From: Psammoneis japonica
Taxonomy: Eukaryota
NCBI GenBank assembly: GCA_008632985.1
Contig: QPGO01000081.1
Span: 62,001 to 126,000, forward strand
Length of the DNA stretch: 64,000 nt
Direction of reading: 5' to 3'
Every line of letters starts with the position of its first letter. Position 1 is the first letter of the stretch. Both the position numbers and the translations under genes were made by a program. Shown here piece after piece: positions 4,590 through 62,842 of this stretch. The notes under the pieces are model-generated. The model worked only from the letters and a program-made list of their open reading frames with translations, ran no database searches and was not told the DNA's origin.

Positions 4590-7211
4590 TTAACATTTCA
4601 TGCACTCTGATGACTGCTTTGCGTGCCACCTGGCCTCCACCACGCATGTCCTTCCGAGTGCACATTTTCAGCCGAAAGATTTGCTTGAGATTCAACGAAG
4701 GGCTGTGCGAACTACATTTGCTAAGTGCGGCTACAACCGCAATGCCAAGCGGGATGTTTCATGCGGACCGCACACCTTGGGAGGTGGAGGATTCCGTTCT
4801 CTTGATGTGGAGCAGGTTGTCGCTCAATGTTTGCAGTTCCTTCGACACTGGCACGGAACTGGACAACCTCATGCTTTGTCCCACATTGCAGTGGCATGGA
4901 CACAGTTTCAGCTTGGAACAGGGTCCAGTTTTCTGCACGATGTAAACACAAAACTCCCACACTCCGAGTCCAAATGGTTTGTGTCAATGAGATCCTTTCT
5001 CGCCCGCATGGATGCTCACTTCAAACTGGACTTCACTGGCGTCCTTCCTGCACAACGAGAGAATGATCAATGCATCATGGACGTGGCACTGGAGTCTGAT
5101 CTTTTCTCTGAAAAAGAGATTGGGTGGGTGAATCATTGCAGGCTGTTCCTTCGGGTGCTTGCTGTTTCAGATGTTGCTCTTCCCGATGGTCGACATTTGG
5201 ACGATTTCAAGTTGAAAGGGCAAACTTCCCTTGTGAGTGGCACGTCATCACTCAATCCAGTCGAACAGGTGCGCCCATCTACTCGCACATGGAAACAATG
5301 GAACCGGGTGATGGCTCTGTTGTGCGACGATGGCACCTCCATCCTCCGAACCCCTTTAGGTCAATGGACCGTTCCGGCCTCCAAGATGCACATGCTTCAT
5401 CCTGCCCATTGCAAGCCCTTCAAAGAGTTTTTGTGCGTCCGCTCTGATGCGGGCCATCAAGTGTTTCCAGTCAAGGATGCGTGCGCTGAAACACTGCAGC
5501 AGTTGGAGACGGTTCCAGATCTATCTCCACTGGCATCACCTGTCATGGTGGACACGACTCTAGACGGCAGATGGTGCGTAAGATCCACTGCATCCCCAGT
5601 GAAGATGCCTCCAACAATTCCCATCCTCGGGGACTTCCGCGAATGGCTGCGGTCCTTGTCGTCATGGGAGTCAACCCTGTTCAGTGCGCTGACCATGCAC
5701 ACATCGGTGTTCAAAATGGCGGAGTCCCTTGGGCGCTTCTGTGCAGAAGCAGGAGGTGACGGCTCTGTGTTGCATTTTAGTGGCACCTTTGGCTGGACGC
5801 TGGCAGTCAATGGAGTGATTCTGGTGGATTGTGCAGGACCGGTCTTTGGATTCCGACCGTCCTCGTGTCGTGCAGAAGCACACGGATTTTCATCAGTTCT
5901 CCGCTTTCTGATTCGAGTGCTGGATTTTTGCAACTGTCATTTTTCTCACGGTGTGGTTGCCTGTTGTGACAACTCCTCTCTGGTGCACAACGTTGCCAAC
6001 CTTCATTCTCCTCCACCACTTCCATTGGATGCAGATGATTCACAACGACAACAAGATTTTCATTCTCGGAATCACATTGCTGACACGTTGGCGCCAGACT
6101 GGGACGTCATCCACGAGATCTTTGATTCACTAACAAGTTTGGAGGCCCAACACAACGGACACCCTGAAAGCAACGTGGTCAACATGACGTGGATTAAAAG
6201 CCATCAGGATGACAACACTCCGTTCGAGTCCCTCCCGTTTCCAGCCAAATTGAATGTTAGAGCTGATGGGTTGGCAGGTTCGTTTCAGGGTCAATGCATG
6301 GAGACACCTTGATGGCTCCTCGAATGCCCCATTGTCATGCACTGCTGAATGTCCAGTCGGCATCGGTGAACTCGAAGTTTAAATCAGTTCTCCATTGCAA
6401 AGCTTCCAGCCCAGCTCTGATCCAATGCATGCAGGAGAAGTGCGGATGGTCTGACTCAGTGTGCGAATCTGTTGATTGGAAAGTTCACTCCAAACTGATG
6501 TCTCGCAACATCCGACGAAAGGTGAGCACCGTGAAATTGGTTCAGGATCTGCTGCTGACGAACAAGATTGTCCACAGATGCAACCCCACATGCCCCGACT
6601 GCTGCGTGCACTGCCAACATCCCCTCAAAGACAGCGATCACATTCTGCGTTGTGCCCACAATGCATCGTGGTGGCGCACTTTTCTCCAAGGATTGTGGAA
6701 GAAATGTGACGACACACACACTTCCCCGTCCACACGAGACCTGTTGTTGCATGCCTTGGAAGGTTGGTTCAATGAGGACCTGCTCTGTTCTGCCCACATC
6801 CATCACAGTGTCACAGAGCTGTTTCAATCTCAAGATGACATTGGTTGGTGCCACATTTTCAGCGGGCGTTTCTCCTCTCTGTGGAATGAGGCACAAACGT
6901 CATGCCTGAAGTCCTCTGGCTTGTGTTGCTCCTCATCCGATGAAGACAAAAGATTAGACTGGATGGCAACTGTTGGCAGTTGTGTGTGGTCACAATGGTG
7001 GGAATTGTGGGACTCCCACAATGATGCAGTGCACGGACACAATTCAGAGACAAGAAAGTCCTCGCAAAGACGGGACACAGAGGCAGAGGTTAAAGAGATC
7101 CACTCTGGGGCAGACGAGCACTTGGCCCAGGATCGAGCAGAGTTGTTTGCTTCGGCAGATGAAAATCTCACCCATCCCACCACAGACTCCGAAACTGGCT
7201 CGCCATGGTAA
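4590..7211 (+). mobile_element. 5'-truncated, degenerate non-LTR retrotransposon (Ambal-like): RT tail, RNase H and C-terminal Cys-rich region
   Basis: ORF 4600..6312 has GGDGSV, SSCRAEAHG, CCDN, WIKSHQDD and AKLNVRADGLA (RNase H). ORF 6294..7211 has CxxC..DHILRC and QDDIGW..IFSGRFS..W. Homologous to the copy at 1-1915 in opposite orientation; the 3' end is not defined. Confidence 0.8.
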
Positions 7212-9139
7212 AACCAATGTTTGAGTCGAGCATTTGAGAGGCCCGGCGTCTGGCTGTTAGAGGCACCCGCACCATCGCAAGCCACTTTGGCGCGGCATCA
7301 CCTGAGGGTGATGCCGATCTTGGCCAATTGTCACATGCTCCTGCCACACCTGGTGTGCTGGGAGTGTGGGTTGGCTTGTTGCCGGAGTTGCAGGGTGGAA
7401 GCGCAGCAGCACTTAAAATTAGACTTTGGGTTTTGTTTTGTTTTTCTCCTTCCCCAAGGAAGCATTCACACAAATGATGACTCCTGGACCAGTGTGAATT
7501 GTTTCTGCCTTTTTTCTGGGCTTCCTGATGTCCAGCAGAGCATGCAATTTGTGAACAGACCAATGTCATTCTTCGGATTCACTCTGGATCATCCGATCAA
7601 ATTGGCAATTTTCTTCACTGAGGGCATCAGAATTTGATTCTTTGCCCTTGTGCTCTTTTTCTTTGTTCAAGGAACTCGCTTTGAGTGTTTTTTTGAACCG
7701 CCTGATCAACCATGACATTCAACTCTTTTTTTGCGAGTGGCATTTTCGTCATCGCGACGCCACGTGCGATTGCCATTTGAACGGTGCCGTTTCGGATCAC
7801 GCTCAATGTGTCCACGGCATTCTTTCACTAGTTCATTTTTAGAACAGCTTCAATCCGTGATGCAGGTGTTCTTTTTTCAAAGATTGCACCTTTTGTTCAC
7901 TTTGGATTGTTCAGGCACCACACAGGAGACCATTTTGGAACCAAGTTTGGAGCCATTTTGGATTTGGAATCAACTTTGCTGTCAGCGCCTGATTTGACAC
8001 ATTTTTTCGTCATGGACGTCTTCAACGACCTTTAGATGACTCAAAACTTAATCAGCTCATCAAGGATGAGTTGCAACAGTTGATTGTTTTGGACAGTAGA
8101 CTGATGCTGCCATCCTTGCGGTGCGAGTGACAGCTGACATCTCAGCGCTTGGTTTCCCGCTAGATTCGACTTAGAACAGATTGAAGGGTCGCAGAGACGC
8201 TCTTCGTTGACCTCTTGGGTCTAGCAGGCACTCTCTTGCTGCTGAGAGCCTTTGGTTTCTTCAGATCGTCTCGAAAACAACAACTCGGATTCTGAAGTGC
8301 AACTTCTTGGAAGACATGAGACAAGAGACACTTGAGGTGCTTTTCAATGCTTTCTTCTTGGTCTTCAGACTTGAAGCTTGTTGATTCGGTCTCCTTGTTT
8401 TCTCCAACAGTCTCTCCTTGCATGGCAGATGCATTTCTCAGACCTGATTGACTCGTGACCTGAAATTCTATCCAACCATGACTTGGTGTAGATGTTTCAA
8501 AAATGCTGTGCACTTGTGGAGTCCTTGGTCCTGAGGCACTTGGAATGGATTATGTCAGAGCGAACCCTCTTGTCTTGCAGACAAAAAACAGTGTTCCATC
8601 TTGAGGCATTGCTCGAATTGAGCTGCTTCCGCTTGGAAATCAATTCCAGCAGAACTCATGCATTTCATGCCTGCTCATGGAAGAATTTGCAAAGGCACAC
8701 TAGTTAAAATTTTCATTTTCCGTGTTTTTACCTTCTGTGGTGTGTATGCACAATGCACTGTGCTCGAAGAATGAGCACAAACGAAAGTAGAATCAAGCAT
8801 GAAAAGTGAAAATTATGAGATTAAATTTTGCTCTGTGATTTTTGGTTTCTCCGAATGAGTTCTCAATGGCCCAAAGCTTCTGCACTGCTTCTACAGACAA
8901 AAGGCCTTTCGGAGAATGTGTTCGTGACAACAGATTGTCCAGATGTGATTGCCATTGACACGCAAGATGTCAACATCGTCAATCAATCGCACTTGCAATT
9001 TTCGACATCCGATCAACTCTGTGTGATCGTTCTGTCCTTTGCACGCATCCACGACTGTGGTGCAATTGACACACAAATGACATGTAATTGCAAATGTGCA
9101 CATGACAGTCGCATGCTGCAGGAGGTCGTGTGGGTCAAC

Positions 9140-11846
9140 CATCATTGACTCATGGCAGTTGCCGGCTCGTGGGTTGCAAGGGGGCAGACGAGAATGCTCA
9201 AGGATGATCACCTTGGAGGAATGGGGCAACGAATCCCAGATCCGTTGGTGGTCGGGAGGGGGACATTTCCATTGGTGCTGGCAAGGCTGGGACTGCGGGC
9301 ACAGGCAGTGTTGGCCTGAAGGATGTCAATGTCACTGTCGATGTCACAGTCAGAACACATCATTGGATGGCTCCTCGGAGCCACAATGTTGATCGCATGT
9401 GAGGCTCTTGCCACTCTGCGTGCAATGTTGATCAGCTTGGTTCTTGATGGCGCAAAGTTCCTCGACAGGATGTGCGGCATTCTCAAGCATGACGTGCTTC
9501 TGTCCTTCAGAGAAGTGGTCACTGGCCGGGATGAGGGCCTCGCACTTGCGCAACTGATCCTGCCAATGAAGGATGAACCCATGGGTCAGACCTTTCCAAG
9601 TGCCATCACCAAGGCGTGCGGTGGTGAGGTGCATGAGCAAGGTGGAGGACTTGACAGATGCACGGGTGGAGGCAAGCGCACACTCGGACAAGGCGCAGCA
9701 GATGGTCTGGGCGTCAGAAGACCCCACATTTTTGCGAATGAGAGCCTTGCCCTTGTCGGTGAGAAAGATGTGTTTGAAGACTGCGAACATGTGCTTTTGC
9801 TGTTCAGCAAAGAGCAGTTTGTCTTCAGGACTGGTTGGTTTGTGTGTCGAGTCTAGAATGCACTCAACGTCTTGGGCACGGGCTTGCACCACAAATGAGG
9901 TGTGCCAAGTGTGCCACTGCTTGTCGGACTTGAGAGCCGTGAAAGCAGTGTTGGGGTCACGCTTGATGCCTCACTTGAAGTCTCGCACTGGGTCGCGTGC
10001 CTTGGTGGGGCCAGTGACGTGCGGAGGTGCAAGAGGTGAGCTGCCGATGGACACAGAAGACATGCAGTCGACGGGATTCCAGTCTCAGGTGGGACTTTTT
10101 GTGACATTGGGCCCGCAGAATTCCACATGTGCAAGCTCCATGGTAAAATTGTCAAGCAATGAAAATGTGAATGATCACCAACAGAAAAAGAGGCAATTTT
10201 GCGAGTGCATCTCCTCCTCCACACTTGAAGCACATTGTTGACAGCATGCCCGGGTGCATTCTTCAGACATTCAAGAACATGCCCAGCGCATTTTTGTTGT
10301 CATAAATGCAGAAAACAGAAAGCCTTTGGCTTTGCAAAACAGGCAATGTGGAACAATTTTTTACAATGGAACACGTGGAAATGTGCATGCGAAACATGCG
10401 ACAGATGACAAAAAATGATTGGCTGTGTCACAGTCCAGCAATGCGAGGTCCCACCTAGAGCTGGAATGCGTCAGTCGGGGCTGAGGCGGCAGGCAAGGAA
10501 CTCATCATGCGTGAACAACGAAGAGTCATTGGCAACATCAAGGCCCTTGTGTGCTTTGACAATGCACAGACCAGCCAGAGCTGCCAACATGTTCTTGTGA
10601 CCTCGGGGCAATGGGACCACATTGGTGCCGTTGTCGCACTCGAGCAAGTCGATTTGGGAAAGCATGAACATGAACAGTTCTTGGTGCGAGTCCGTGTCGT
10701 CGTGGGCCAGAGCCAAACGAAGAGGACTTCCAGCACCTTGGGCAAGCACAGTTCCAACAACGTGTCCAAAACCATTGGTTTGTTGCTGACCAGTGAGAAC
10801 CATGTTGGACAAAAGCGGTGTCAGGGCAAGCGATTCTTGTTGTTGGGACACAGAGGCAGACTTGAAACTTGGGTTGGAATGGACTTGACTTGAAATGGAC
10901 TTGACTTGAAATCTTGAACTGTGTTAAAATCAGAAGTCGCCGGGCTGTGCTATCCCGTTTGTTGTCAAGTGCTAAACTTCAAATCCGGTCCGCAGAGTTG
11001 TGCCGGCACGTCCGAACCCGCAGCCAGCGGCGCTTTGGGTTGCTTGCAAGTGGAGCAGTGGGTTGTAAACCCCTGCAGGCAAGCTGACTAGAGGTGGACA
11101 AGACCCCCGAACCATTCTTGTTTTGTGTTGGTTGGATTTCCCGATCAGGCGCTGTGGACGAACGAACAAACGTGGGAAAACACCCTCGCCCCAACGCAGG
11201 CTGCAATCATGGCTGCTTGCTCTCACAGTTGTCCTCATGGACCCAGCAGAACTGTGGAGCACCAGCAGTCCAGGGCAGATCAGGTGCAACAGACTCGGTG
11301 TGCTTGTAGAGTGGCAGCAAAGCCGGAGTCCAAAGAGTGGGTTCAAGTTCTTGGCCGTGAAGACATGCATGTAATTGGTGACGAAGATCCTTGAACATGT
11401 GGGGTTCTTGACCATCAACCGTTGAATGTGCACACAAGGCGATGAGGATCAAGAACAGATTTGAACACAACTGTTGAGTGTGTGTCTTCAGCGACAAAAG
11501 GTGGTGTGATCAATCCAGACATCCAGCGGCAAGGAGACTTGACGGTGACGTTAAATTCCTGCCATGCTGGCATTGAATGCGCGCAGACTTGCCGACGCAC
11601 ACGTAGAACATGCACGGAGGTCCACGCAGAATTGAAACAGCATCGTCGGTAGATCAACGATGATGATGGCGGTTGCTCAATGGGTTGACAATGAGCAAGA
11701 CTGTCAATCTGACAGAAATTGAAGGGCAAATGGCAAGAATTCAAACAACAACTCCTTGCTGCTGTCTAAACAGCAGATGAGTCTCCGCTCAGAGACCACT
11801 GCAGGAGCCGAAAGACGTGTGAGTCGGTGTGATGGGCTGCTGTCAT
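9140..11846 (-). mobile_element. Truncated second copy of the Copia element at 14510-21601 (partial 5' LTR, 5' UTR, gag)
   Basis: Direct alignment to about 19060-21465. The LTR boundary tgacagaaatt is at 11710 and similarity stops near 11846. Has an internal deletion near 9380 and a MITE at 10070-10472. Confidence 0.92.
10070..10472. mobile_element. 403-bp non-autonomous TIR element (MITE) with a 4-bp TSD
   Basis: Absent from the sister Copia (gacatgcagtcgggg at about 20066-20080). Imperfect TIRs gacgggattccagtctcaggtgggac / gtcccacctagagctggaatgcgtc. TSD agtc at 10066-10069 and 10473-10476. Confidence 0.85.
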
Positions 11847-12800
11847 CAAGCGCGATTTCACATTGACGATCTGCTGTCGAGTCACGTGAATCCCAAAGCA
11901 AATGACAAGTTTCTCAAGTGGTTGAACAGAGAATGTGGAAGCCATGGCAAGGTCATGGCAACAAGAGGAAAGAAACATGATTGCCTTGGCATGACACTGG
12001 ATTTCACCGAAAAAGGAAAACTCAAGGTGGACATGAGAAAATGCACAGGATCAATGATTGATGACTTCCCGGAAAAGATTAAATGCACAGATTCCGCAAT
12101 GACACCTGCAGGAGAGAACCTGTTCGAGGCAGGCGGCACAAGACTGAACCAAGAGAAAGCACAAACGTTCCATGTGTGGGTGGCCAAAGGACCATTTTCA
12201 TCCAAGAGGGGCACATGGACATGCACCCTGCAACATCATTGCCATGCATGCGAATGAGGGAACCCACAGTTAAAGACTGGGCAAAGTTGGTCCGGTGCCT
12301 GAAACATTTGAATCAGACAAGGAACGAAGTGGCAACGCCAAGTGCCAAAAACCTCCGAGCAGTGAAGTGGTGCATGGACGCATCATTCGCGGTGCACCCA
12401 GATTTCAAGAGCCACGCCGGAGGAGCAATGACTGTGGGCAATGGAGCCATGCAAGCTGAGCTGGTTGGAGTTGACAACGTGATGACTGTGATCCTGTGGA
12501 CGAAGCCATTCATGGAGCACCAAGGACATCCGTCAACAAGAACACGCCACACCAGGACAACAAGAGCGCAATCTTGTTGGAGACCAATGGTTGCCGCAGT
12601 GCCGGCAAATGTTCCAGGGCACTCAACACAAGACACTTTTTTGCATGCAACCAAGTCAAGAAGGGCAACCTGACAATTGAACACTGCCCTGCAGATGCAA
12701 TGATTGGGGACTTTGTGACCAAGCCATTGCAAGGCAAGAAATTTTGCAAGTTTGAACAAGCCGCAATGGGGTGCCAAGGACCCAAAGGCAACAGGAGTGG
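11847..12800 (+). mobile_element. RT-RNase H fragment of a different Ty1/Copia family, degenerate
   Basis: Motifs FHIDDLLSSH, KKHDCLGMTLDF, KWCMDASFAVHPDFKSH, HQDNKSAILLE and IEHCPADAMIGDFVTKPLQG across frameshifted ORFs 11829..12834. Confidence 0.88.
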
Positions 12801-13457
12801 ATTCCTGTTTTGTGACGTCAGACAAGAATTCTGATGTGCATGGGTGAGAGAGCCCTGCAACCCAGAGAATGATCAATGAGTGTCTTCTTCCGGAACATCA
12901 TGGTGCAAGAGACACCGAGCATGCAATTGAACAACCATGGATGGCAATGAAGCTGGAGGTGACAATGCAAATGTGGCAGCAGCTGATGCTCGCGTGTTCA
13001 ACGAATGCATGAACTGTGAGCTTGTCACCTTCAACGAGTGCAATGAGGTGGCAGACAGCTGGCCCAACAACTGTTTGCTTGAGATTGCAAAGACATTTGA
13101 CATGCCCGCCAAAGACAAGGATCTGTTTGTTGAAAAAGGAGAGTTGGACGGGAGACGCTGACCCACAGATTGGTGGAATGGAAACAAGACCATGTGCAGC
13201 ATGCATGCAGACAAAAGGTTGTTTTTGTCACGCCCTTTGTGACATTTAAAGGCTGTGACACGTCTCCGTGACACATCAACTCTCATTGGCAGCTGTGTGT
13301 TGCACTCCTCCCCATGTGTCACGCATCCATGCGGCTCTTTGCTGACGTGCACTGACACTGCACGGTTTTGGCAGAACAGTGTGGGCACGTGCAAAGGAAC
13401 GCACAGAACTGCTCAGAGTTTTACGCGTTCGACAGTGATCAACGTTGCTGCAGACAA

Positions 13458-13528
13458 CTCCCACTCAGGGTTTCGAACCCCTGGCCTCCTGCCCAATGGT
13501 TGCGATGAACCACTCCGCCATGAATTCA
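13458..13528 (-). promoter_or_regulatory. tRNA-derived RNA polymerase III A/B-box segment inside the TRIM core
   Basis: Minus strand TGGCGGAGTGG (13520-13510, A box) and GGTTCGAAACC (13479-13469, B box) lie 30 nt apart. D-stem GCGG/TCGC and a T-stem can form; the anticodon arm does not pair. Confidence 0.55.
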
Positions 13529-13710
13529 CTGTCCTCATCCAGTGCCAGAATCGGGGAGAAGACCCATCACCTGTTGAACCACGCACGCACGTTGAACGTG
13601 CTGCAAGGGTTGGTTGTTGTTTTTCTTCGGTCACCAGCCTGTCTCATTCTTTCAAGATCGACAAAGACAAGCCGCTGTTGTCAGCACAGTTTAATCGCTG
13701 TAAGACCGCG

Positions 13711-14509
13711 ATGCAGGACACCTCCGCCGTCTTTGTTCTGTCGCAGAAAGAATTCGACACGGCATGCAGTGTGAATGACCAACCACCAAATGCCGTGAAT
13801 CCTGGTGACGGGCAACCGCCCGGGCAACCACCGCAACCACCGCCGGGCGCACCGCCACCGCCGGTGCACCCCGTGCCACAAGCGGGGCAACCAGCCCAGC
13901 CACCACCGGGTGCACCCGCTGGCCAAGCGCCGCAAGGAGGGCTGGGCACACAGCCACAAGCAGCTGCCCAACCGGCGCCGCCAGTCGGCGCAGCCCAGGT
14001 TCCCCAACAAGGGAACCCCAGGACCCACCAAGATTTTTTCGCGATGAATGCCAAGGACCCCCACCAAGGGGTCTACATGGAGCCCATGATTGACTTTGCG
14101 GCCCCTGTGCAGGGGGCCTCCTGTCACAACCCACAAGCCCCAGCACAGAGGGTGTCAGCGGCGTCCGAGCACAATGTGCCGATGGCATTGGCACGCCTCT
14201 GCCGCGCACAGGGCGCACCAGACGAAGGGTCGATTCAGGTGTGCCACCGCGTTTCAACCTGCCCGACTGCCGTTGTCGGGCCTGCACAGCCGTGGGACGG
14301 AAACACCTGTGCCCCAGCCGGGGACCTGGTCGCCAACCAGTTCACAGCAGCCCCGTGTCCACCAGAGGAGATGGGCCTTGCCGCCGCTGGCACATTTGTC
14401 CCAGACGACGCGGGGATGGCTACGGAGATCACGGTGCACCCTGAAGGGTTGGCAGGCCCCGCGGACCCAAATGCAGCAAACACGGCAGAAGTGCGCACGC
14501 GATTCACGA
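13711..14509 (+). pseudogene. YR-element gag-like ORF, N-terminal part (Pro/Gln-rich); start codon uncertain
   Basis: Removing the Copia and one TSD joins ...VRTRFT to MHVPF... (ORF 21606) in frame. Confidence 0.75.
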
Positions 14510-14785
14510 TGACAGAAATTGAAGGCAAATGGCAAGAATTCAAACAACAACTCCTCACTGCTGTCTAAACAGCAGATGAGTCTCTGCTCAGAGACCGTTG
14601 CAGGAGCCGAAAGACGTGCAAGTCGGTGTGATCGGGCCACTGTCATTGTTCTTGTGAGCCTTGTGGCTCGAAAGCAAACTACATCGCGCGCGAACGCGTG
14701 GAACTAAAGCACACAAAACTGTGCGTGGCAAACTAAACAGCGCGCGACATTTCGCGCACACCCAAAACCTGTTCAAATCCTGTCA
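14510..14785 (-). repeat. Copia 3' LTR (276 bp)
   Basis: Aligns end to end with 21327-21601; PPT adjacent. Confidence 0.93.
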
Positions 14786-14789
14786 CTCC

Positions 14790-17700
14790 CCAGTTTGCTT
14801 GAGGAGTCACAGAAACAGATTCGACTTCGGATGGAATGAAGTTCCAGAACATGAGGGGGCGGAGAAGGTCCCAGATTTGGGAGTGACCCCAATGCTTGCT
14901 GAGAATGTCAGCAGGGTTGCGGGAGCCTTCGATGAAGTGGAGCTCAAGGCAACCAGAGGCGATTGCCTCACGCACATGGTGGAACGACAGTGCGGTGTGT
15001 CGCTTGTGTAACTTGGAGTGCGGGATGGTGGCACTGTCTACAACTGACTTGTTGTCACCGAACATGCAACTGACATTACGGATCGGGACGCCGGAGGTGG
15101 CGCAGGGTGATGCACAGGTCGACAATCTGCTCGACACAAGTCCTTGCGGCAACAAATTCAGACCCACAGGTTGCAGTCTCCACGGTGGCTTGCTTCTTAG
15201 AGAACCAATCAGCCGGGAATTTGTTGAGGAAGTGGAGCATTCCCATGACAGAGCGTCCGGTGAGCATGCAATGGTGCAAGTTTGCATCGACGCAGTGGGT
15301 GGCAGTGACAAACTTGCCAAGGGGCGGTGGAGCGTCCTTCGGGATCATCTCTTCTGCTTCGCCGCACATGGAATGCATCCATTCACAGGCCGGAGCAGGG
15401 AGATCCGAACAGTCGGGCTCTTCCGTGCGAACGCGGAGAGCGCCGTGTCGCATCTTGCAGAGGCACCCACAGACGCGTTTGGCACGATCCAAGTGGCCTT
15501 GACGGGGTGCAGCTCGGAAGCTAGAGAGTGACATGATGGCCGTGGTGATGTCAATTCGACCAAGAGACACTGCCCATTGGAGTGAGCCAACAAGGGACTG
15601 GAACTTGTGAATGCCATCGGGCTCCAGCAGCTCGGAAGTGTCCAGTTCGGGGTGGTCACCCTTCTCCAGAGGTGACAGGGCGTTGGTGGCAGGTTTCTCC
15701 CCAAACAGTTGGGTGCAGCTGTCGACCATGCGCTCAATGCACTTGCGCGGAGACAGGCTCAAGGTGCCGTCGGGATCCCGGGAAAAGTCGCAACCCAGAT
15801 GGAACTCAATGGGTCCCGCACCCTTGAGCTTGAACTTGCACTTTTCCGTGAGAGCATCGACGAAAGATTGAGGGTCCTTCACAGCAATGGCGAGGTCATC
15901 CACATAAACGGCAATGCACTCATGGTGGTCGCCGTTCCTGCGCATCCAAATGTCAGGTTCGGCGCGGCAGGGGAAGAAGCCTTCAGCTCGCAGGCAGTCG
16001 GCGAAGCGCTCGTGCCAGCGGAGACCGGAGCTGCGCAGTCCACACAGGGCCTTGTGGATGACAAGGATGTGTCCTTCGAGTTTGCCAAATTCGGGTCCGG
16101 CTACAATGTAGAGCTTCTCCTTGGTGGTGGCTTCAAGACAGGCATTGCCAATGTCGGTGGCCCATGTCTCCAACTCGTTGAGTTTGGCCAGGAAAATCAT
16201 CAACCGAAGGCCACGGAGGGAGACTGCTCCGGAGCAGACACTGTCGACAGGTACATCCGTGAGGTGCCCATCGGCTACGAGTCGTGCCTTGTGGCGACCG
16301 TCGTGTTTCACGTCGCACACTGGGTGCACTCGGATCTTCTTGTGTCCCGCAGGAGGAGTGGAAGACTCGAAGGGCCCGCAGTCATGGAAGACTTCGTATT
16401 CCCCGAGTTGGTCCATCTCGAGATTAGTTGCGTCTCCCCATTTGCGGTTGCCATTGCGCTCGTCCAGTGACATGGCGTGTTTGCAGTTCTGGGGAACTTC
16501 GCATCCGCACTTGTGGCGAGGTGCAGTGCAGAAGGAGCGAAGCTTGGCTTGGTTGGCCATGCGAAATGGCTTCTTTTGGCGCCTCGCGATGGCGCGGAAC
16601 CGCTTCCAGCCATCCGTGTCGAGAAGTCCGTTCTCTCGTGCATAGATGGCGCAGGTGACGGGGTCGTCCTTGGCGATGATGGCGAGAGGCTCGGACGTGA
16701 TCTCCCCACTTTCCCATTCAAGCATGATGTTGCAGCTTGAGCCTTTCCAGGTTGGGTCATGAGGCTTCAGAGGTCCTTCGTGTGACACGATGCATCGGAA
16801 TTTCCAAACAGCAGTGTCTTCGTCTTCTTGCTCAATGTGATTCATGATGTCATTGTGGGCAAGGACTTCCTCGCATTCGTCGTTGTTGACAGAGCAGACG
16901 AACTCAGTGAGCTCGGGATTGCCGTTCACTTTCCATTCATGGTCTTTGACGGCCTTGACGATGCGAGCTCTGTGGCGTTGTCCGTCCTCTTGTGGCTGCA
17001 TGAGGAAGGTGCGTCCAATGATGTCTTGCGGATCGAAAACTGGCATCTTGGGTGTCCTGATCTCCCCATCAGGAGAATCGACGGGGTTGTCGTCATGGCG
17101 AGATTTGATGATGGGTTCAGGTGGCTCCCCATCAGGAGGATCAAGACGCAGGTTTCGAATGGCAGGATCGGTGGTGGCAGAGCGTACGTTGGACCGGCAG
17201 AGGATCTTTTGAGTCTCGTCAGAGAGAATCTTGAAGGTCATCTGGTGGCCGACGTGCTCAGCAATGCCAGCGAAGCATCCACGCAACTCACGGGATTCGG
17301 GCGGCCAATCGGAGTCATCGAGGTGGAAGTGCACGGGTTCCCACCAGTGAAAGCAAAGCAATGGGCTGATGTCCGGGGTGGAGCCAGTGAGAGTCTCGAG
17401 GGGCGCGCGCCAGTGGAGACGTGGGGACGCTGTGTGGTTGAGTGAGAAGCACACATGCATGAGCCGCCAGCAGCCATGTGTGGGCGGGCGAACCAAACGA
17501 TCCATGACAGTGTTCGCCATGCGCTTCACGGTCTGGTGTCGACGCTCGGCAAAGTTTTGGTGTTGCTGGTGAGGCTCACTTTGCCAGCTGGAGATGAAGA
17601 GGGCTCGCAGGATCCCGAGCACTTTGTTGCTGATCTCAACTTGAGCACGGTCGCCAATGAGTTTGGATGGGGCACCACGCTCACGGATCTGATCATCGAG

Positions 17701-20403
17701 TGTGTTGACAAACTCTTTGTCCGTCTTGGTGCCGCAGATGTCAGTGACAGCAGACTCGGTGCCAACAAACAGTTGGGCGCTGGTGCAACCAGAGTCGACG
17801 GCCGGGGTGTCGGCACAAACGGTGTCAGTGGCGACAGGCTCGTTGCGGCGGTGCACATCAAGGGCGGGGTTGGGTGATTTGCAGGCCTTCCCAAGGTGTG
17901 TACCGGCGGGCATGCGGGCGTGCTGCGTGGTGCAGTCAAAAGTGCGACGGACCGCATCGGCAGGTGGGAAGCCAAAGCAAGGCCGAAGAGACTCGAAGGG
18001 GGGGTCCTTGGGCTGTACAGTGCGCTCCGGGGGCGGGACATCGTCGCCCTTGGGGTCAATCGCGTGTGGATGACACTCGCAGAACACGTCGTCGTTCGGA
18101 ATGAGGTGATCATCGAGGGCGGACGCGTGATCGGCAGACAAGGAAGCGGACATGATGGTCTCGTTGACAACGACACGATGACGGTAGTTGCCGCACTCGT
18201 CAAATGGGTTGGCAGTGGGATCGTCCTGCAGGTCAGAGATCGCGTCGTGCCACTGGTCGTCGTCAGTGACAGAGTGATCGAGGACGGAAGGATCCCATGT
18301 GTCATCACCGGTGAGGATGACATGGGGCAGGGTGTCCCATTCGGCGTCAGTGTAAGGTCGCATGGCAACACAAGGCAGGCCGGCCTTGATGTCAATGGGG
18401 ATGACATGGCCATCAGGAGTGGCAACACATTGCAAGCCGTTGGGCACCTTGACAGAGCGATCGTTGACATCCTGTTTGCACCATTCGAGCTGGCCGCAGG
18501 AATGGATGGTCTTGCCCTTTCCCGTGCATGCGCACTGATGGAGGATGGCGATGACGGGACCACGCTGGGTCTCAATGACGGCACCAGCGGTGACAATGGG
18601 GATGTCCACCAATTGATGGTCGTCAATGCCCTGAACGTCGACTTGGCGAGAGGTGCGTGCAATGACGCGAACGTCGTCACCAGCAATGCCGCCGTTGGCC
18701 CCACGATCGACTGGAGCACCAGTGCGTGTGGAGCGATGAGCAGAGGCAGAGCAAATGACATTGTGGTCATCAACGCGACGGCAAGTGCGGCCGTCAAGTT
18801 CCACGTCATCGGCAGAAGCTGGCGGGGTAGAGGGAGCGGCGGATGGCCCCGGTCGACTGGCATTGGTGGCTTGGTTGGGAGACAACAGACATTGCAGATC
18901 ACCAGGTGGCAGTGGCTTGCGCTTGGTGAGGTGCGCCAGGATGGGATTGTCCGAAGTGGCACCCACATTTGGAGCGGGGTCACCAGAGTCAGCAGGAGTC
19001 GTGTTGGACAAGTTGACATCACCGTCACTCCCAAGGCATTGGTCGTGAAGGTTGGCCGTAACGGACTCATGGCAGTTGCTGGCTCGCGGGTTGCGGGGAG
19101 GCGGACGAGAATGCTCAAGGATGATCGCCTTGGAGGAATGGGGCAACGAATCCCAAATCCGTTGGTGGTCGGGAAGGAGACGTTTCCATTGGTCACCGGT
19201 GAGGCTGGGACCACGGGTGCAGGCAGCATTGGCCTGAAGGACGTCAATGTCGCTGTCAATGTCGCAGAACACATCGTCGGATGGTTCCTCGGAGCAGACG
19301 TCGTGTGCGTGTGTGGCGCGTCGAGGAGCTCGAGGTGTCATCTTGGGTTGAAACGTGCTGTCATGTTGAGCTGCTGCGGAGAGGAGCAAGCCGCAGTGTT
19401 GGTCGCATGTGAGGCTCTTGCCACTCTGCGTGCGATGCTGATCAGCTTGGTTCTTGACAGCACGGAGTTCCTCGACAGGGTGTGCGGCATTCTCGAGCAT
19501 GACGCGCTTCTGTCCTTCAGAGAAGTGGTCACTGGCCGGGACAAGTGCCTCGTGCTTGCGCAACTGGTCTTGCCAATGAAGGATGAAGCCGTGGGTCGGA
19601 CCTTTCCAAGCACCATCACCAAGACGTGCGGTGGTGAGGTGCGTGAGCAAGGTGGAGGATTCGACAGATGCGTGGGTGGAGGCGAGCGCACACTCGGACA
19701 AGGCGCGGCAGACGGTCTGGGCGTCAGAAGACCCCACATTTTCGCGGATGAGAGCCTTGCCCTTGTCGGTGAGAAGGATGCGTTCGAAGACGGCGAACAT
19801 GCACTTTTGCTGTTCAGCAAAGAGCAGTTTGTCTTCGGGGCTGGTCGGTTTGTACAACGAGTCTAGAATGCACTCGACGTCTTGGGCACGGGCTTGTGCC
19901 ACAAGTGAGGTGTGCCAAGTGTGCCACTGCTTGTCGGATTTGAGAGCCGTGAAAGCGGTGGGATCACGCTTGATGCCTCGCTTGAAGTCTCGCACCGGGT
20001 CGCGTGCCTTGGTCGGGTTGGTGACATGCGGAGGTGCGAGGGGTGAGCTGCCGATGGACACAGAAGACATGCAGTCGGGGCTGAGGCGGCAGGCAAGGAA
20101 CTCGTCATGCGTGAACAACGAGGAGTCATTGGCAACGTCAAGACCTTCGTGTGCTTTGACAATGTACAGACTAACTAGGGCTGCTAACATGTTCTCACAA
20201 CCGCGGGGCAAAGGGATCACATCAGTGCCGTTGTCGCACTCAAGCGAGTCGATTTGGGACGGCATGAACGTGAACAGTTCTTGACACGAGTCCGTGCCGT
20301 CTTGGGCCAAAGCCAAACGAAGAGGGCTCCCAGCACCTTGGGCAAGCACGGTTCCAACAACGTGCTCGAAACCATCGGTTTGTTGCTGACGAGTGAGAAC
20401 CAT
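14790..20403 (-). pseudogene. Copia gag-pol polyprotein with a +1 frameshift near 15093 and pervasive Tyr->Cys/His substitutions
   Basis: Protease VDRGANGG. Integrase VATDTVCADTPA, DRAQVEIS and SEPHQQHQNFAERR. RT KARLVADG, DIGNACLEA, KALCGLRSSG and YVDD. RNase H VDANL, ETATCGSEF, then GDNKSV and NPADILSKHW in the frame of ORF 14733..15320. Confidence 0.93.
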
Positions 20404-21326
20404 GGTAGACAAAAGCGGTGTCAGGACAAGCAATTCTTGTTGGGAAGCGAAGGTGGACTTGAAACTTGGGCAAGAATGGACTTGACTTGAAATCTTGAAC
20501 TACCTCAAAATCAGAAGTCGCCGGGTTGTGCTATCCCGTTCGTTGTCAAGTGCTAAACTTCCTGTCCGGTCCGTAGAGTTGTGCCGGCACGTCCGAACCC
20601 GCAGCTGGCGGCGCTTTGGGTTGCTTGCGAGCGGAGCAGCGGGTTGCAAACCCCTGCAGGCAAGCTGACCAGAGGTGGACAAGACCCCCGAACCGTTCTC
20701 ATTTTGTGTCAGTTGGATTTCCCGATCAGGCTGGCCAGTTGACGCAGGCGTCAGGCACTGTGGACGAACAAACAAACACGGGAAAGCACCCTCGCCCCAA
20801 CGCAGGCTGCAATCACGGCTGCTTGCTCTCACAGTCGTCCTCGTGGACCCAGTGGAACTGCAGAGCACCAGTGGTCCGGGGCAGATCAGGTGCAATGGAC
20901 TCGGTGTGCTTGTGGAGTGGCAGCAAAACCGCAGTCCGAAGAGTGGGTGCAGGTTCTTGGGCGTGAAGACATGTGTGTGTGTGCATGTCTTCAGTGACGA
21001 AGATCCTTGAACATGTGGGGTTCTTGACCGTCAGCCGATGAATGGGCATGTCAAGGGATGAGGATCAAGGACAGACTTGGACATGACCGTTGAATGTGTG
21101 TCTTCAGCGATCAAAGGCAGTGTGATCAATCCAGACATCCAGCGGCAAGGAGACTTGACGGTGACGTTAACTTCCTGCCAATGCCCTGGCATTGGATGCG
21201 CGCAGACTTGCCGATGCATGTAGAATGCATGCGGAGGTCCACGCAGAATTGAAACAGCGTTGTTGGTAAATCAACGACAACGATGGCGGTTGCTCAATGG
21301 GTTGACAATGAGCAAGACTGTCAATC

Positions 21327-21601
21327 TGACAGAAATTGAAGGCAAATGGCAAGAATTCAAACAACAACTCCTTTCTGCTGTCTAAATGGCAGTTGAGTCT
21401 CCGCTCAGAGACCGTTGCAGGAGCCGAAAGATGTGCAAGTTGGCACAATCGGGCTGCTGTTGTTGTTCTTGTGAGCCTTGTGGCTCGAAAGCAAACTACA
21501 TCGCGCGCGAACGCGCGGAGCTGAAGCACACAAAACTGTGCGTGGCAAACTAAACAGCGCGCGACATTTCGCGCGCACCAAATCCTGTTCAAATCCTGTC
21601 A
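21327..21601 (-). repeat. Copia 5' LTR (275 bp)
   Basis: Aligns with 14510-14785 and partly with 11710-11846. Confidence 0.93.
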
Positions 21602-21606
21602 CACAA

Positions 21607-24600
21607 TGCACGTTCCGTTCGCCTGCGTGAACATGCTTCTCCCAGGGGGTCTGTCCCCGAAGCAAGCCTTCACACGTGTTCTTGGAGTGGCTGCTGCCAG
21701 GAACGAGGTCGACGCGACACGTCCTTTGTTGGACTGTCTCAAGGTCGTGTGCACCGCCATGGCGGGGGACCCCCACGTGTCGGCCGTTACGCGAGAGTGG
21801 CTGACCATGCCCCAGCCCCTGAATGCGGCGCTTGTGCGGCACTTCGACCAGAAGGTCAATTTCGACCCACCGGGGCGCAACGAGCTTGTGCTTCCGCCCC
21901 ATCACATCGCACCAGTGGTGAGGGCGATCGATGGACTCACGACTGAGCAGCGTCAGACGCGCATTGACGCGCAGGCACGCCAGCGAGCCGCCGAGCAAGG
22001 AAAGATGCCGGCACAAGCATTCGGCGATCCAGGCGTGCACAAACATGTGAGACTTTGCCAAGTGCACACCGAAGATCAGCTGCCACCCATGTGGCCACGC
22101 CTCGCGCGGGCTTCCAAGGCGGGACGCATCACTGAGGTCCAGAACGCAGTTGATGAGATGCGCCGCGCCATGGGAGTGCGTTTCCGCATCCCGGTCACTG
22201 TGAGTTTGGTGTCAAAATTGATGAGCCTCAACTTTGCTGGAGACAATGGAGATGACCCTGCCCAAGGAGTCAACCCGCACCAATTTGGTCTCACGACCCC
22301 GGAGCAAGCGCAGCAAATCACTCACCGTGCTGCCATGCACCGCCAGATCCACAGAGGTGACAGTCGGCCCAGTCTCACCGATGCGATGGTGCTGGAAACG
22401 CCTGATGACGCACGCGTGACCACCACCATCAAATCGCTCCAATGTTGTTTGGAAAGCACACGTGTCATGCTTGCAACACTGCTGGGCGCGGGACACCCTG
22501 TGGTCCAGTGCTTCACGGATTCCCGGCAGGACCTGGTCACGTGCGCCGAGGACCTGGCTGTGGAGTGCTCCCGTAATCCAATGCTGGCAGCGGACATCCA
22601 GCGTTGTGTGCAGGTGGAGCTCATGTCTTGGTTTCGGCTGCAGGAGACAGCCTGCAATGCCGCGGTCCCATTCCATGCACGCCGAGTGGTGGGCGATGCT
22701 TCGAAGGGAAACGATTCGTGGCATCACACGCTGCCCCCTGCAATTGCATTGGTTTCCGGGAGCGCGCCCGCCCCAACTGCTGCGACTCCCTCGTTGGCCC
22801 AGCCCATGGGTGGTGCCGTGCAAAATCCACGCCCAGGCGCACCGGGCGACAACACGCCAGTGTGCAACCCCCAATGCGACGAACGTTTCAACACCGTCCG
22901 CGATCGTCCCAACGTTGGGTCACGGGAGGTAAAGCGGCGTTGCACTCAGAATGGGGTTGCACTGCCGGTCGACGCGCAAGGAAACCCACGGTGCCTCCCG
23001 CACCACTTGAGAGGGCAGTGCAACTCAAACTGTGGGTGTGCAGCGGACCATCATAACAACCACGCGGAGAGCGACCAGGCAAACCTCCTCACGTGGGCAA
23101 CGGAGCATTGGAAGACCAAATGGGTCTTCAGCAACGGCCCGAGCTCGGGGACTCTGGGCCGAGAGCCTTTTCAGCTGCCACCGGCATCGTTGGCAGTGCC
23201 GCCACCCCCGCAGGAGGAGAGATCCACAGACAGCAATGACCGCAGCACCTCACGTGCGCAGGCCATTGCAGACGCTGCACAGACTGACAAACTGGGTGAG
23301 CAAATGTTACGTGACACACAATTGCTGCGTCTTAGAGGACCAAGTCACTTGTTGCGTCACCGCAGCGGCAGAGGGGACTGGGGACCGTTGCACCACACAC
23401 GCAAGCACCCAGCCCACAGGCTGCTGCAAAACTACAAGCACCGCGGCGTCCCCATGACCCTCGCAGACGCACCTTGGACACCTCAAGAGCTTGCAGCAAG
23501 TTTGGCCAGGGGGGCACACAAGTCCGCTTGCGAATGTGTCGAGTTCCTGCGGGAGGACATGGCCGACTACGTCAACAAGGGTTTCTGGGTGGTCCTCCCA
23601 TGTGAGGACATAAAGAACACCCCAGGATTGTGGCTGAGCCCCATCGGCGTGGCACCCCAGTGTGGTCGGCGACCACGACCAATCGTCGACCACACCTTTT
23701 ACGGCACCAACGACGCGACTCAGCCCAACACCCCGATGGAAGCCATGCAGTTCGGACACACCCTGGACCGTTTGCTGCGCCGCATTTTGCTGGCAAATCC
23801 ATCGCACGGCCGGGTGTACCTCATGAAAGTCGACCTCGCTGATGGCTTCCATCAGATGCACCTTAACCCCAATGATGCCCAACGACTCGGGGTGGTTTTC
23901 CCACATTTACCGGGCGAACCCCCTTTGGTGGCCATGCCCACACGGTTGCCCATGGGATGGGCAAATTCGCCACCGTGTTTTAGTGCCGCTACCGAGACGG
24001 CAGCGGACCTAGCTAACTTACAGCTGGTGCGCGCCGCGACGGCGCCACCACACCCATTGGAGCAATTGGCATCCAGTTGGGCACCAACCCATGTGCCCCC
24101 ACCAACTTCACCACCCGCAACAATCGCCGTGCCAATTCCGACGTCACCGGACCCACACCTCAACCCGAGCCGCCGCCGGCGCCTAGCCTACATCGACATG
24201 TGCGTCGACGACTTCATTGGCGCCGCGCAGGGGTCCGCCGCAACCCGAAGAAACATGCATCATGTGTTGTTGCACACAATCGACAATGTCTTCCGCCCCA
24301 CGGATTCGAACGACGTTGCTGCCCGCAAAGAGCCCGCATCAGTCAAAAAGCTCCGTAAGGGTGACGCCACATGGTCTACACAGAAAGAGGTGTTAGGCTG
24401 GTTAATTGACACCATGGCAATGACACTCCGACTTACCCCTCGCCGGCGTGCACGTCTACACGACACACTCTACAAGGACTTCCCCCGCACACACAAACGC
24501 GTTACCGTCCAGGATTGTCAGAAACTCCTGGGAGAACTGCGTTCCCTCGCGGTGGCCACACCTGGCTCGCGAGGTCTGTTCTCCGAATCACAGGAGGCCC

Positions 24601-25772
24601 TCCGCCACACTGCACCGGATTCACGCATCCGACTTGCGGCCAACGTACATTCCATGCTGGACGATTTTCGTGATCTGTGCCAGACCCTGGACTCACGTCC
24701 CGTCCGCATCCAAGAGCTCGCACCACTGCCTCCAACTGTACACGGCTGTCACGACGCTGCCGGCCACGGGGCCGGTGGGGTGATCGCACCAACACCCACC
24801 GCAGTCCCACGAGCCGCCAAGCTACGCTGTTCCTCTGGCCGGCGTCGCATCCAACGTGATGCAGGCCCTGTCGCGTGGCGCCTGCGATTCCCCAAGGACA
24901 TCTCCAACTCACTCGCCACGTGTGAGAATCCACACGGCCCCATTGCCAACACCGACCTCAAACCAGTCGGCAGCATCGTCCACACCCACACAGCTGCTGA
25001 CACTTACGATGTCCATGAGCGCACCAACCCAAACCGCACCGATGACCTTGGTGCCATGCACTGGCAACGCAAGGGATCCACTGCCACAGTCAAACCGGCT
25101 TCAAAGCTCCTCCGGCTCCAAGCGCACCATCAACGCCAACATTGTTACACAGGCCTCCATGATTGCCACCCGGGCACTTGGAACCGAGCGGGTGACGACG
25201 CTTCGCGCCTGCAACACTTGTCTGACGTCGCGTTCCTTTCTCATTTGAATTCTACTTGCCCACAGAGCAAGTCTTGGCGTCTGTGGACCCCGCCACCCGA
25301 ACTGCGTTCTTACGTGATCTCGGCACTGCGCAAGAAGCAGTGCAATGCGGCGTTGCCTCTTCCCGAGCCTCCGCCGCTGACACCCACTGGAACCTTTGGA
25401 TCGACTTTTGCTGCCAACTGGCCATCAGTCCATTTCTCGAAGACACCAACGATCCCATCCTCTTCCTCCAAGTGTTCCTCCATCGACTCCGCACCGGTGT
25501 CATCGCACCAAGAGGCAATCCCATCCGGGCGCGCACCGCTGAGGATGCCCTGCGGTCGGTTGGGCAGACGTTCACTGCAATGGGGTCCGCGGACCCACGT
25601 CTCACACCCCAGGGTGACATGGATTTCCGTCTTGCCCGCCAAATCCGTTTTTACAAGAAACAGGATCCGCCGCCCAACCGCATTAAACCAGCCCCAGTCA
25701 TCGTCCTCCTCTGGATCTTGTGTGCCGCCGCCCTTGGTGCCAGCACCGGCACCAAGGCCGTTGCGGATGTGA
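21607..25772 (+). pseudogene. YR-element gag C-terminus (Zn-knuckle-like) continuous with RT-RNase H
   Basis: Zn-knuckle-like CLPHHLRGQCNSNCGCAADH. RT motifs SPIGVAPQ..RRPRPIVD, KVDLADGF, RLPMGWANSPP, CVDDF and KEVLGWLID. RNase H HDAAGHGAGG and GDDASRL. Confidence 0.9.
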
Positions 25773-26419
25773 CTGCAATTGCCTTTTTCTTTTTGCTTTG
25801 CCCGGGTGAACACACAGCCATGCCATCCAACACCACTCCGTTTCGCCTGGCAGATCTTCGTTTAACCTCGGGCGGAGCATGTTTGAACCTCTTTGCCACC
25901 GAGGCCCCTGCCCTCTTCGCCGCCACCCTCAGCTCCCTCACTTTCACCACCCAGAAAAATGGCGTTCGCGACGAAGTCATTGCGCATGGCCCATCAGGCC
26001 ACCCAGACCTGTGCCCAACCAGGGCCCTCATCCACCGAGTTGTTCACTTGCGCACCTGCGGAGCGCAACCCGACACCCCCCCAGGGGTGCACTTTGAGAA
26101 CGACAGGTGGCACGCCGTCTCCCCTGCCGACATCACGTCGGCACTTCGCACCACCATTGTTGCCCCAGGTCCCAAGAACCCAGGCTTCACACCGGCCGAT
26201 GTCTCATCCCGCTGCCTTCGTGCAGCAGGTGCAACGGCGCTGTTGTGTGCCCATGTCAACACCGACCCAATCCGTCTCTTAGGCCGGTGGCGCTCTGACG
26301 AGATGCTGCGCCACTTGCACCTACAAGCCGAGCCTGCCATGCATGGCTTTGCACAAGCCATGCTCGCTGGGGGCAATTTCGTGCTTCACCCGAATGCTGA
26401 AGCACCCATTGCCCCGTGA
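25256..26419 (+). pseudogene. Tyrosine recombinase of the YR element, with catalytic residues mutated
   Basis: AFFFLLCPGEHT (LLRPGEYT), FTTQKNG, RCLRAAGAT and LLGRWRSDEMLRHLH (LRYLH). Overlaps the pol 3' end, as is typical for DIRS-order elements. Confidence 0.9.
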
Positions 26420-29400: not shown

Positions 29401-29441
29401 CATTGTGTGTACACCCTGGATGGCTGAAAATTTCTGGTCAA

Positions 29442-34600: not shown

Positions 34601-34746
34601 TGGACCGACCCCCCTCGCGCGCGACAGGATCTTCCGGATTCTTTGGATTCTCATCAGTCACATACACATCAGTCGCGGCAGCGCTGTTGCTCTTAGTTGC
34701 TATCCCATTCGGTAACAGCCTTCCACTCTTTGTTGTTCATTCAGGC

Positions 34747-38700: not shown

Positions 38701-38950
38701 TCATGACCATAACACTATTCTCTCGTGTCAAACCAAGAGCGAGAACTAATCTTGCTCAGCCTCTGGAGAAGTGGTGTGCTGCATGCTATCTCAAAAGAAT
38801 CCTGCTATGATGGCACAGCTACTGTTTGGACGCGCTCGACAACAGCTCAATTGGGGACAAAACGCGCAACAAGGACTACGTTTTTCTCTCTTTTTCTCTA
38901 CAATTACTGTACACTCAACAGCAACAACAACAACAACAACAAAAGCTCTA

Positions 38951-45825: not shown

Positions 45826-45870
<45 letters not shown>

Positions 45871-62050: not shown

Positions 62051-62163
62051 TGGAGCAGGTGATGATGGATGAGCAGCATGCTGATCTGAAAAAGAAGGAG
62101 ACCTCGATCGACCCCGTCTGTTGGAAGTTGGGGACGCTGTGGACAACAAATGCAGCATGTTCA

Positions 62164-62622: not shown

Positions 62623-62842
62623 CAAAACCACAGCAGGATTTTTTGGAAAAGGCCAAGAAACAACTTGGCTTTAAAAGGCACCAGTTGTCATTAAAAGGCA
62701 TCAGTGATTGGGAGCACATGGTTGGCGACAGTGCTTGAAAGCTTTGGAAAAGGGCAACTTTCGCCACATGTCGGCAATGATTCCTCGACTCTGCATGCCG
62801 CTGCGGCTCAGCTGTGTTCCGTTCGACGTGGCTTGCAGTCTC

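Follow-up and report, generated by a model that had tools for sequence, protein, structure and literature searches.

Copies of a Copia-type long terminal repeat (LTR) retrotransposon family in the diatom Psammoneis japonica have lost most of their TpA steps to CpA or TpG, and these changes took place on the chromosome, after insertion and separately in each copy. Two members of this family, copies A and B, lie in the stretch of DNA that I analyzed, 64,000 nucleotides of contig QPGO01000081.1 (positions 62,001 to 126,000 of the forward strand, assembly GCA_008632985.1), which will be called the window. I have very little doubt about the mutation pattern itself, and as the best overall explanation I favor, with moderate confidence, a host process directed at TpA that works in hit-and-run events of about five bases and probably deaminates adenine; for the adenine-deaminase chemistry in particular, which is read from sequence, my preference is likewise modest. 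At the TpA-class sites of the family the states TA, CA and TG co-occur among copies and CG is nearly absent. The two copies and their parts are:

14510 to 21601, minus strand: copy B, a full-length Copia-type LTR retrotransposon with LTRs and ends, its TpA-class sites 84% converted and its CG-class sites 10% lost.
21327 to 21601, minus strand: 5' LTR of copy B, which aligns to 14510-14786.
14510 to 14786, minus strand: 3' LTR of copy B, 277 bp.
15076 to 20499, minus strand: gag-pol frame of copy B, a single long frame of 1807 codons with an RVT_2 domain.
9124 to 11846, minus strand: copy A, a member of the same family truncated to a 5' fragment and 89% identical to B, its TpA-class sites 89% converted and its CG-class sites 39% lost.
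10072 to 10471, no strand assigned: an insertion of about 400 bp within copy A, absent from copy B.

The family was assembled from two genome searches, in which the best 40 of 305 and the best 40 of 270 candidates were scored, and 64 copies were projected onto copy B coordinates: A, B, 40 stretches of at most 7.5 kb (39 places from the first search and 1 from the second) and 22 of 30 loci from the second search, the 8 left-out loci being A itself or places already covered. Removal of 3 near-duplicates left 61 copies and 239 TpA-class sites, with 2381 TA, 5127 CA and 3664 TG cells; 79% of the states thus read CA or TG, from 22% to 92% per copy, against 0.8% A-to-G change at other adenines, a restriction to TpA of the kind known from the alga Bigelowiella (discussed below). 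Both strands are hit, the strand term being only -0.06 to -0.12 after context is fitted. For replication, two further repeat families were taken from the flanks, a gypsy-type family (37 of 39 copies kept) and a third family (34 of 40 kept), because the other repeats of the window were few: two queries returned 6-13 matches each, and a third had about 9 close copies.

The direction of change can be read from proteins outside the family. The copy B frame has 1490 homologues at E <= 1e-40 and matches the RVT_2 reverse transcriptase (PF07727, E 1.8e-23), with no integrase family found at E 0.001 in a Pfam search of this mutated frame, and it retains only 8 tyrosines (0.44%) against a median of 3.8% in 120 homologues; none of these 120 best homologues is tyrosine-depleted (the lowest stands at 3.25%), and two with odd scores, P0121 and P0122, were checked for tyrosine loss and showed none. 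There are 35 columns in which Tyr occurs in at least 80% of the outside homologues; in them copy B reads Cys at 17, His at 10, Tyr at 5 and another residue at 3, and most residues other than Tyr are largely kept. An earlier note on this DNA had set a short stretch of B beside its counterpart in A, and its quoted strings are indeed present: 20161-20190 differs from 10561-10590 by TA/CA at 20165, 20172, 20176 and 20185 (two further A/G differences, at 20174 and 20179, went unmentioned), and the adjoining minus-strand codons read GGT TGT GAG in B and GGT CAC AAG in A, giving DSCQE and DSHQE, in frame with the open reading frame 15076-20499. The stretches in question are:

20165 to 20199, plus strand: the patch in copy B, four kept TA sites and a CACA double, a cold spot across the family.
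10565 to 10599, plus strand: the matching stretch in copy A, four CA sites and a TGTG double, the site matching 20172 reading TG in A's segmental duplicate (L032).

Of the 64 projected copies, 63 cover these four sites, and their TA/CA/TG counts are 26/13/24, 26/16/21, 30/14/19 and 42/15/6, with CG in none. As a mutation class the differences exceed chance, and the proposal that TA went independently to TG and to CA from a common TA state holds up well, TA being the commonest state at all four sites. At 20196-20199, 63 copies comprise 27 TATA, 6 TGTG, 5 CACA, 1 CATG and 1 TGCA, the other 23 being mostly single-hit. A global alignment of 9100-11860 with 19020-21480 contains many CA/TG double differences. 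The chance is close to negligible that TA is instead the derived state, the CA/TG swaps coming from CpG deamination or a C-to-T process like that of fungi, or that the swaps are assembly or polishing errors among repeats. CG-class sites do decay (16% are lost), the 33 CA/TG swaps between A and B include 4 at CG-class and 10 at unassigned sites beside the 19 at TpA-class sites, and single-copy haplotypes come from the assembly only, since of four sequencing runs from one study the two examined are contig sets; however, CG is never seen at the four quoted sites, outside homologues carry Tyr where B has Cys or His, and errors would produce neither a restriction to A>G/T>C at TpA nor a context rule common to three families. 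CpG decay was accordingly set aside as the source of all but a minority of swaps.

Two side observations concern rates. TpA conversion and CG loss co-vary (rho 0.45 between the 61 copies and a weak 0.19 within copies), and conversion runs far ahead of CG loss, as in copy L057, which is 80% converted with 6% CG loss. Away from TpA and CG sites, the family alignment has a background A>G of 8.4 per 1000, above the 5.6 per 1000 for non-CpG C>T, an excess that may reflect relaxed activity of the same process or subfamily divergence.

The timing is given by the LTRs, of which 27 pairs could be aligned over 7451 columns, yielding 108 CA/TG swaps, 84 TA/x, 122 CG/x, 25 other transitions and 17 transversions (for copy B, 276 columns with 5 CA/TG swaps, 1 TA/x, 5 CG/x, 2 other transitions and 3 transversions). 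Doubly converted LTR sites within one copy agree in 208 of 318 cases (0.65), the same as the median of 0.64 between unrelated copies, and it is for this reason that the change must be placed on the chromosome, after insertion, and be regarded as independent in each copy. LTR sites are 78% converted (1146/1474) against 0.17% other transitions per LTR, some hundred-fold excess by hand calculation. Copy A and its duplicate L032 differ at 20 of 93 TpA-class sites and so diverged after the duplication, which, together with the span of 22% to 92% among copies, argues that the process ran over a long time. All of this bears on editing of the element's RNA or cDNA before integration, by an ADAR- or APOBEC-like activity, or on reverse-transcriptase error, which I find scarcely credible. 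The element does pass through RNA and single-stranded DNA stages, and the genome has two A_deamin (ADAR/ADAT1-type) loci (G000:C40:112674-113392 and G000:C79:344558-345390), most unicellular eukaryotes having one ADAT1. Yet such editing of retroelement intermediates predicts a single strand and LTRs that share their edits, whereas here the strands are hit alike, a copy's two LTRs agree no better than unrelated copies do, and segmental duplicates went on diverging; as the main source it is refuted by the LTR pairs. ADAR2, moreover, acts on RNA and favors UAG, and TAG, listed as its hot spot in the available part of PMC10661471, is disfavored here.

The flanking bases largely set which strand is taken and which sites survive. 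For the strand that undergoes the A-to-G change, the preferred 3' neighbor is a pyrimidine (weights of about 1.5-1.9 for TAC/TAT, 0.5 for TAA and 0.7 for TAG); an A immediately 5' of the T and a purine before that A are favored too, and the plus/minus term is about 0. Where only one strand reads TAY, that strand takes 3179 of 4516 conversions in the Copia family, 631 of 983 in the gypsy-type family and 292 of 339 in the third. TadA, for comparison, prefers pyrimidine-A-pyrimidine.

What sets this process apart is a coupling that reaches about two bases and then ends. Doubly converted TATA sites read TGTG in 210 cases, CACA in 200, CATG in 92 and TGCA in 75, a same-strand share of 410/577 (0.711 against 0.534, z 9.5), and the adjacent same-strand double hits that the earlier note had noticed in a single pair of copies prove to be a family-wide property, with a stratified (Mantel-Haenszel) odds ratio of 6.3, a copy-bootstrap 95% range of 4.4-9.9, and values above 1 at 14 of 14 site pairs. 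The ratio is 7.9 at seven plain TATA sites and 9.5 in younger copies against 4.1 in older ones, while at 3-15 bp it scatters around 1 (0.5-1.5). The TATA-type runs that carry the same-strand signal are:

20974 to 20985, plus strand: a run of six overlapping TpA-class sites, one of nine such runs.
Starts at 14627, 19310, 20196, 20705, 21047, 21082, 21226 and 21444: the other eight runs.

Sequence context was considered as the source of these doubles and rejected: sequential context models give a same-strand share of only 0.42-0.44, isolated sites that mimic a half-converted TATA give 538/1570 (34%) and 219/548 (40%), and since all of these predictions fall under half against the 71% observed, context does not explain them. 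CGCG sites, serving as a control, have no same-strand excess (0.348 against 0.477, n=46), and the fitted probability that both TATA adenines are hit together is about 0.45-0.5.

Adenines outside TpA are occasionally drawn in as well. Under a strict filter, the +1 bystander (TAA to TGG) is changed in 55/944 cases on the same strand, 17/1641 on the opposite strand and 5/1244 where the site is unconverted (31 sites up, 6 down; stratified odds ratio 8.2), and the -2 bystander (ATA to GTG) in 92/1471 against 26/1406 (24 sites up, 4 down); the +2 bystander is weak, nothing consistent appears beyond +2/-2, and the C>T and G>A controls are flat. The two further families replicate this in part: three bystander classes repeat in the gypsy-type family (29/453 against 6/579, 7/179 against 0/409 and 10/215 against 1/268), and in the third family TATA coupling reaches z 3.6 and the +1 class 3/63 against 0/196.

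Micro-clusters of this kind could also arise without deamination, if a TpA mark or lesion were repaired or bypassed by a low-fidelity Y-family polymerase that places G opposite T over 2-5 bases, an account that I regard as unlikely and still worth keeping in view as the chief rival. Short-patch synthesis would account for the same-strand neighbors and for five transversions at +1, the genome has six Y-family (IMS) matches that amount to five loci, and polymerase eta, in the part of PMC6987143 available, makes WA-to-WG changes (W, A or T) through dGTP opposite template T, so that in somatic hypermutation G opposite template T turns A into G after T, which is also the change seen here. The WA motif of that excerpt, however, includes ApA, which is not raised here (at adenines away from TpA the A>G rate per 1000 is 9.3 when A precedes, 8.5 when C does and 7.8 when G does, whereas TpA is 79% converted), and a Y-family polymerase would therefore need a separate TpA-specific trigger; transversions, too, stay at 1-2 per 1000. 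It is also conceivable, though improbable, that thymine is the modified base, for instance oxidized to a form that pairs with G, with neighboring thymines of a single strand affected jointly. The pattern is symmetric, in that RATA*Y reads RT*ATY on the opposite strand (R, purine; Y, pyrimidine), and the bystanders can equally be read as T-to-C at adjacent thymines, but the literature search found no precedent, and the genome search returned no Tet_JBP match, although it lacked a positive control and absence is not established.

The earlier note had gone further and suggested tract-wise, processive action. On such a model an enzyme would run along a single strand for tens to hundreds of bases and miss some patches, and here the note's reading finds no support, such sweeps now being very improbable. 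Same-strand agreement equals that of a within-site shuffle in all bins from 3 bp to 7 kb (largest z 1.7 in the 61 copies), the runs test has a mean z of -0.13 with 0 copies below -1.96, and simulated 100-bp tracts carrying 25% of hits give an agreement of 0.529 against 0.509 observed (standard deviation 0.004), which largely refutes tracts of at least 100 bp with at least 25% of hits. The four CA sites of copy A are unexceptional as a same-strand run (copy A as a whole has 39 runs against 41.8 expected, z -0.64; the probability of a same-strand run of at least 4 somewhere in A is 0.999), and they were not one event, since one of them reads TG in the duplicate L032. The patch in B, for its part, is a cold spot of the whole family: retention at 20165-20198 is 0.42-0.71 per site across the family against about 0.21 overall, all four TA are kept in 12 of 60 copies, and copies selected for resembling A show the retention too (7-13 of 20-22 at each site, the overall figure being 20.5%). 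The context model predicts a retention of 0.31-0.41 at the four isolated patch sites, so context is much, though not all, of the explanation.

In favor of sweeps one could cite the same-strand TATA doubles, a slight whole-copy strand bias, the possibility that many overlapping sweeps on alternate strands blur the tracts, and a patchiness of access that is real. With row and column totals fixed (52 copies), TA sites are co-retained at 1.09-1.31 times expectation over 3-300 bp; access is thus patchy up to about 300 bp, modestly and with no link to strand. In some copies a 5' stretch of about 1 kb (LTR and leader, B coordinates 20500-21602) is spared, with 28/59 sites converted in L067, 37/80 in L082 and 16/75 in L100 against about 70-90% elsewhere. 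Flanking DNA was examined as a cause of the partly spared copies and dropped, no simple rule emerging across 20 flanks: the spared 5' ends of L082, L092 and L100 adjoin TA-depleted DNA (0.00-0.10 in the next kb), and another lightly converted copy adjoins TA-normal DNA.

I therefore return to a host process whose pattern is shown by the data: in the repeat-rich domains of the chromosome, TpA steps of elements already inserted go from A:T to G:C on both strands, through small separate events spread over many rounds of cell division. Each event is read as a hit-and-run with a footprint of about five bases. The preference for 5'-RATA*Y on the strand of the A-to-G change is observed, and so is the coupling, in which the next TpA adenine, two bases off, is taken along in about 45% of cases and an adjacent non-TpA adenine in about 5% (percentages that come from the fitted model and from counts), after which the event ends. 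The adenine would be deaminated to hypoxanthine in a briefly opened TpA step and fixed as G:C at replication, probably with few events per replication, because dense lesions would leave long strand-phased runs. The effect would be missense inactivation, mainly Tyr to Cys or His, with no new stop codons, and the observed loss of tyrosine may well serve defense.

Several points weigh against this explanation, beginning with the fact that sequence alone cannot tell an altered A from an altered opposite T and that the acting enzyme is putative only. Stratification by site reduces the -2 bystander effect to an odds ratio of 1.9, the third family did not show that effect (1/90 against 2/189), TATA coupling is borderline in the gypsy-type family (0.605 against 0.537, z 1.95), and same-strand transversions at +1 (5/894 against 0/1624) are more easily explained by a polymerase than by a deaminase acting alone. 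Inheritance accounts for some of the +1 changes (G at 20174 is common to A and its duplicate, which differ at 20172), and because some bystander states were not made together, I rely on per-site sign tests and on replication. Copies were picked by similarity, which inflates retention near the query, and the fitted model under-predicts intact TATA (0.03-0.05 against 0.08-0.11 seen). Tracts holding 10% of hits, or 25% in 30-bp tracts, fall below the power of the simulation, there is a small whole-copy over-dispersion of strand (variance 0.0028 against 0.0017, p 0.006) with long-range bins at z 1.6-1.7, and the 51-100 bp bin of the third family has z 3.1, all of which leaves room for a minor share of strand-phased hits.

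The earlier note took copies A and B as a pair that captures the mutation in progress, and this picture has to be abandoned, for they are neither sisters nor a before/after pair: at 89% and 84% they are both far converted, and B sits inside an insertion that A's duplicate lacks. That insertion is:

13195 to 27304, no strand assigned: a 14.1-kb insertion holding copy B, absent from the segmental duplicate G000:C82:1-9017.

Since A's duplicate is without this segment, A and B are not sisters and became neighbors through a later insertion; A's true partner is L032, and its CG-class loss of 39% against 10% in B fits A being the older of the two. The duplication itself, on the same contig, joins window 8585-13194 and 27305-31611 with G000:C82:1-9017 (L179), at 94% identity in the left part and 98% in the right, on either side of the 14.1-kb insertion. 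Like Ty1/copia elements, within which CoDi is the name of a diatom group, copy B has direct LTRs with TG...CA ends, a 5-bp target-site duplication, RVT_2 and a single long gag-pol frame, and it departs from its Ty1/copia homologues in a Tyr content of 0.44%. Its flanks, CACGA and CACAA, agree in 4 of 5 bases, and the mismatch is read as one probable CG-to-CA change within the target-site duplication, which is exact in many of the 27 full-length family copies.

The closest known system is Bigelowiella natans, where TpA-restricted hypermutation strikes integrated DNA of nucleocytoplasmic large DNA viruses (NCLDV) as well as virophages; in the portion of that report available, adenine deamination is proposed and not proven, the rate is about 1000 times background, and only some lines are active (Mettrop et al., bioRxiv 10.64898/2026.01.13.699255). 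As far as that portion goes, the two cases share TpA to TpG/CpA change of chromosomal DNA on both strands, in foreign or mobile regions and far above background, and they differ in that the Bigelowiella mutations were measured de novo, the alga being a rhizarian and its viral inserts single-copy, whereas P. japonica holds a near-saturated record in multi-copy LTR elements. The main text, to the extent available, does not analyze tandem hits, the coupling of strands or the wider sequence context, and the words tandem, processive, diatom and LTR are absent from it; its supplementary mutation list may bear on clustering. In Neurospora, repeat-induced point mutation (RIP) similarly inactivates repeat-rich DNA on the chromosome by dinucleotide-specific transitions, but according to the accessible text of PMC7296669 it changes C to T and 91.9% of its clusters are single-strand, whereas the present change is A:T to G:C, with strand coupling that ends at about two bases and no single-strand clusters over hundreds of bases. 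The trigger of RIP is homology pairing before meiosis, and the target in Bigelowiella is single-copy. TadA-derived base editors, in the part of PMC10661471 at hand, also make A-to-G changes in a window of a few bases with bystander edits, and unlike the process here they are engineered and need Cas9 to open the DNA.

Profile searches for deaminases in the genome gave 9 matches to PF00383 and 5 to PF14437, with no expansion seen, and the deaminase and Y-family loci are ordinary-looking candidates, none tied to the process. One frame that joins a deaminase with DIOX_N and 2OG-FeII_Oxy (L174:313-1785, on G000:C79) was set aside, because its HAE/PCVMC/AIYWAG motif, which we take to resemble that of guanine deaminase, probably belongs to nucleobase catabolism. 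A neighboring pair of deaminase matches occurs twice (G000:C41:505477-506590 and G000:C317:55748-56795), one member with identical scores, and is either a duplication or a set of uncollapsed alleles. A broader proposal, plausible and a little short of an even chance, is that diatoms and chlorarachniophytes share a natural adenine editor of chromosomal DNA, sent to silenced mobile DNA, that would open about five bases at RATAY, deaminate one or two adenines on one strand and release, the doubles and the -2/+1/+2 bystanders being its editing window.

At the scale of the window, depletion of TpA follows the mobile DNA, again resembling the confinement to foreign or mobile regions in Bigelowiella:

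1 to 29200, no strand assigned: TpA-depleted repeat domain, TA observed/expected 0.119 (over 1-29000), edge at about 29.2 kb.
29400 to 58000, no strand assigned: gene-bearing comparison region, TA observed/expected 0.435.

In the gene region lies an adenylosuccinate synthetase (46577-47884); its named homologues come from diatoms, in line with a diatom host, and in the final 5 kb of the window TpA stands at 0.055 of expectation. More TpA-depleted islands lie in or beyond the gene region (33000-35000, 38000-39000, 45000-46000 and 58600-64000), some of them also stripped of CG (observed/expected 0.05 at 45-46 kb), and self-comparison of the window reveals tandem arrays at 56917-57388 and 62164-62622 with periods near 30/90 bp and of about 155 bp. 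The depleted domain also has long stop-free frames with no Pfam match at 21525-25772, 13243-14568 and 4594-6312 (all plus strand), which loss of TAA/TAG stops may have lengthened. Repeats of this kind keep long stop-free, tyrosine-poor frames and can be mistaken for genes.

A literature search, to which most subscription journals were closed, found nothing on TpA hypermutation in diatoms or on multi-base TpA events, and the TpA mutator has one experimental report so far. What the present case adds to a known process of mutation that has hardly been studied is a new lineage and, in the micro-cluster footprint, a new mechanistic fingerprint: RATA*Y, about 45% co-editing two bases off, bystander adenines within two bases at about 5%, and an absence of long tracts on one strand. 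This fingerprint separates the process from RIP and from APOBEC/ADAR editing of retroelements, provides a pass/fail test for any candidate deaminase or polymerase, and can be checked against the 231 de novo mutations mentioned in the available part of the Bigelowiella study. If the broader proposal of a shared editor is true, that editor would be a eukaryotic genome defense built on adenosine-to-inosine (A-to-I) editing of double-stranded DNA, and such a natural adenine editor of double-stranded DNA would matter for base-editing tools as well.

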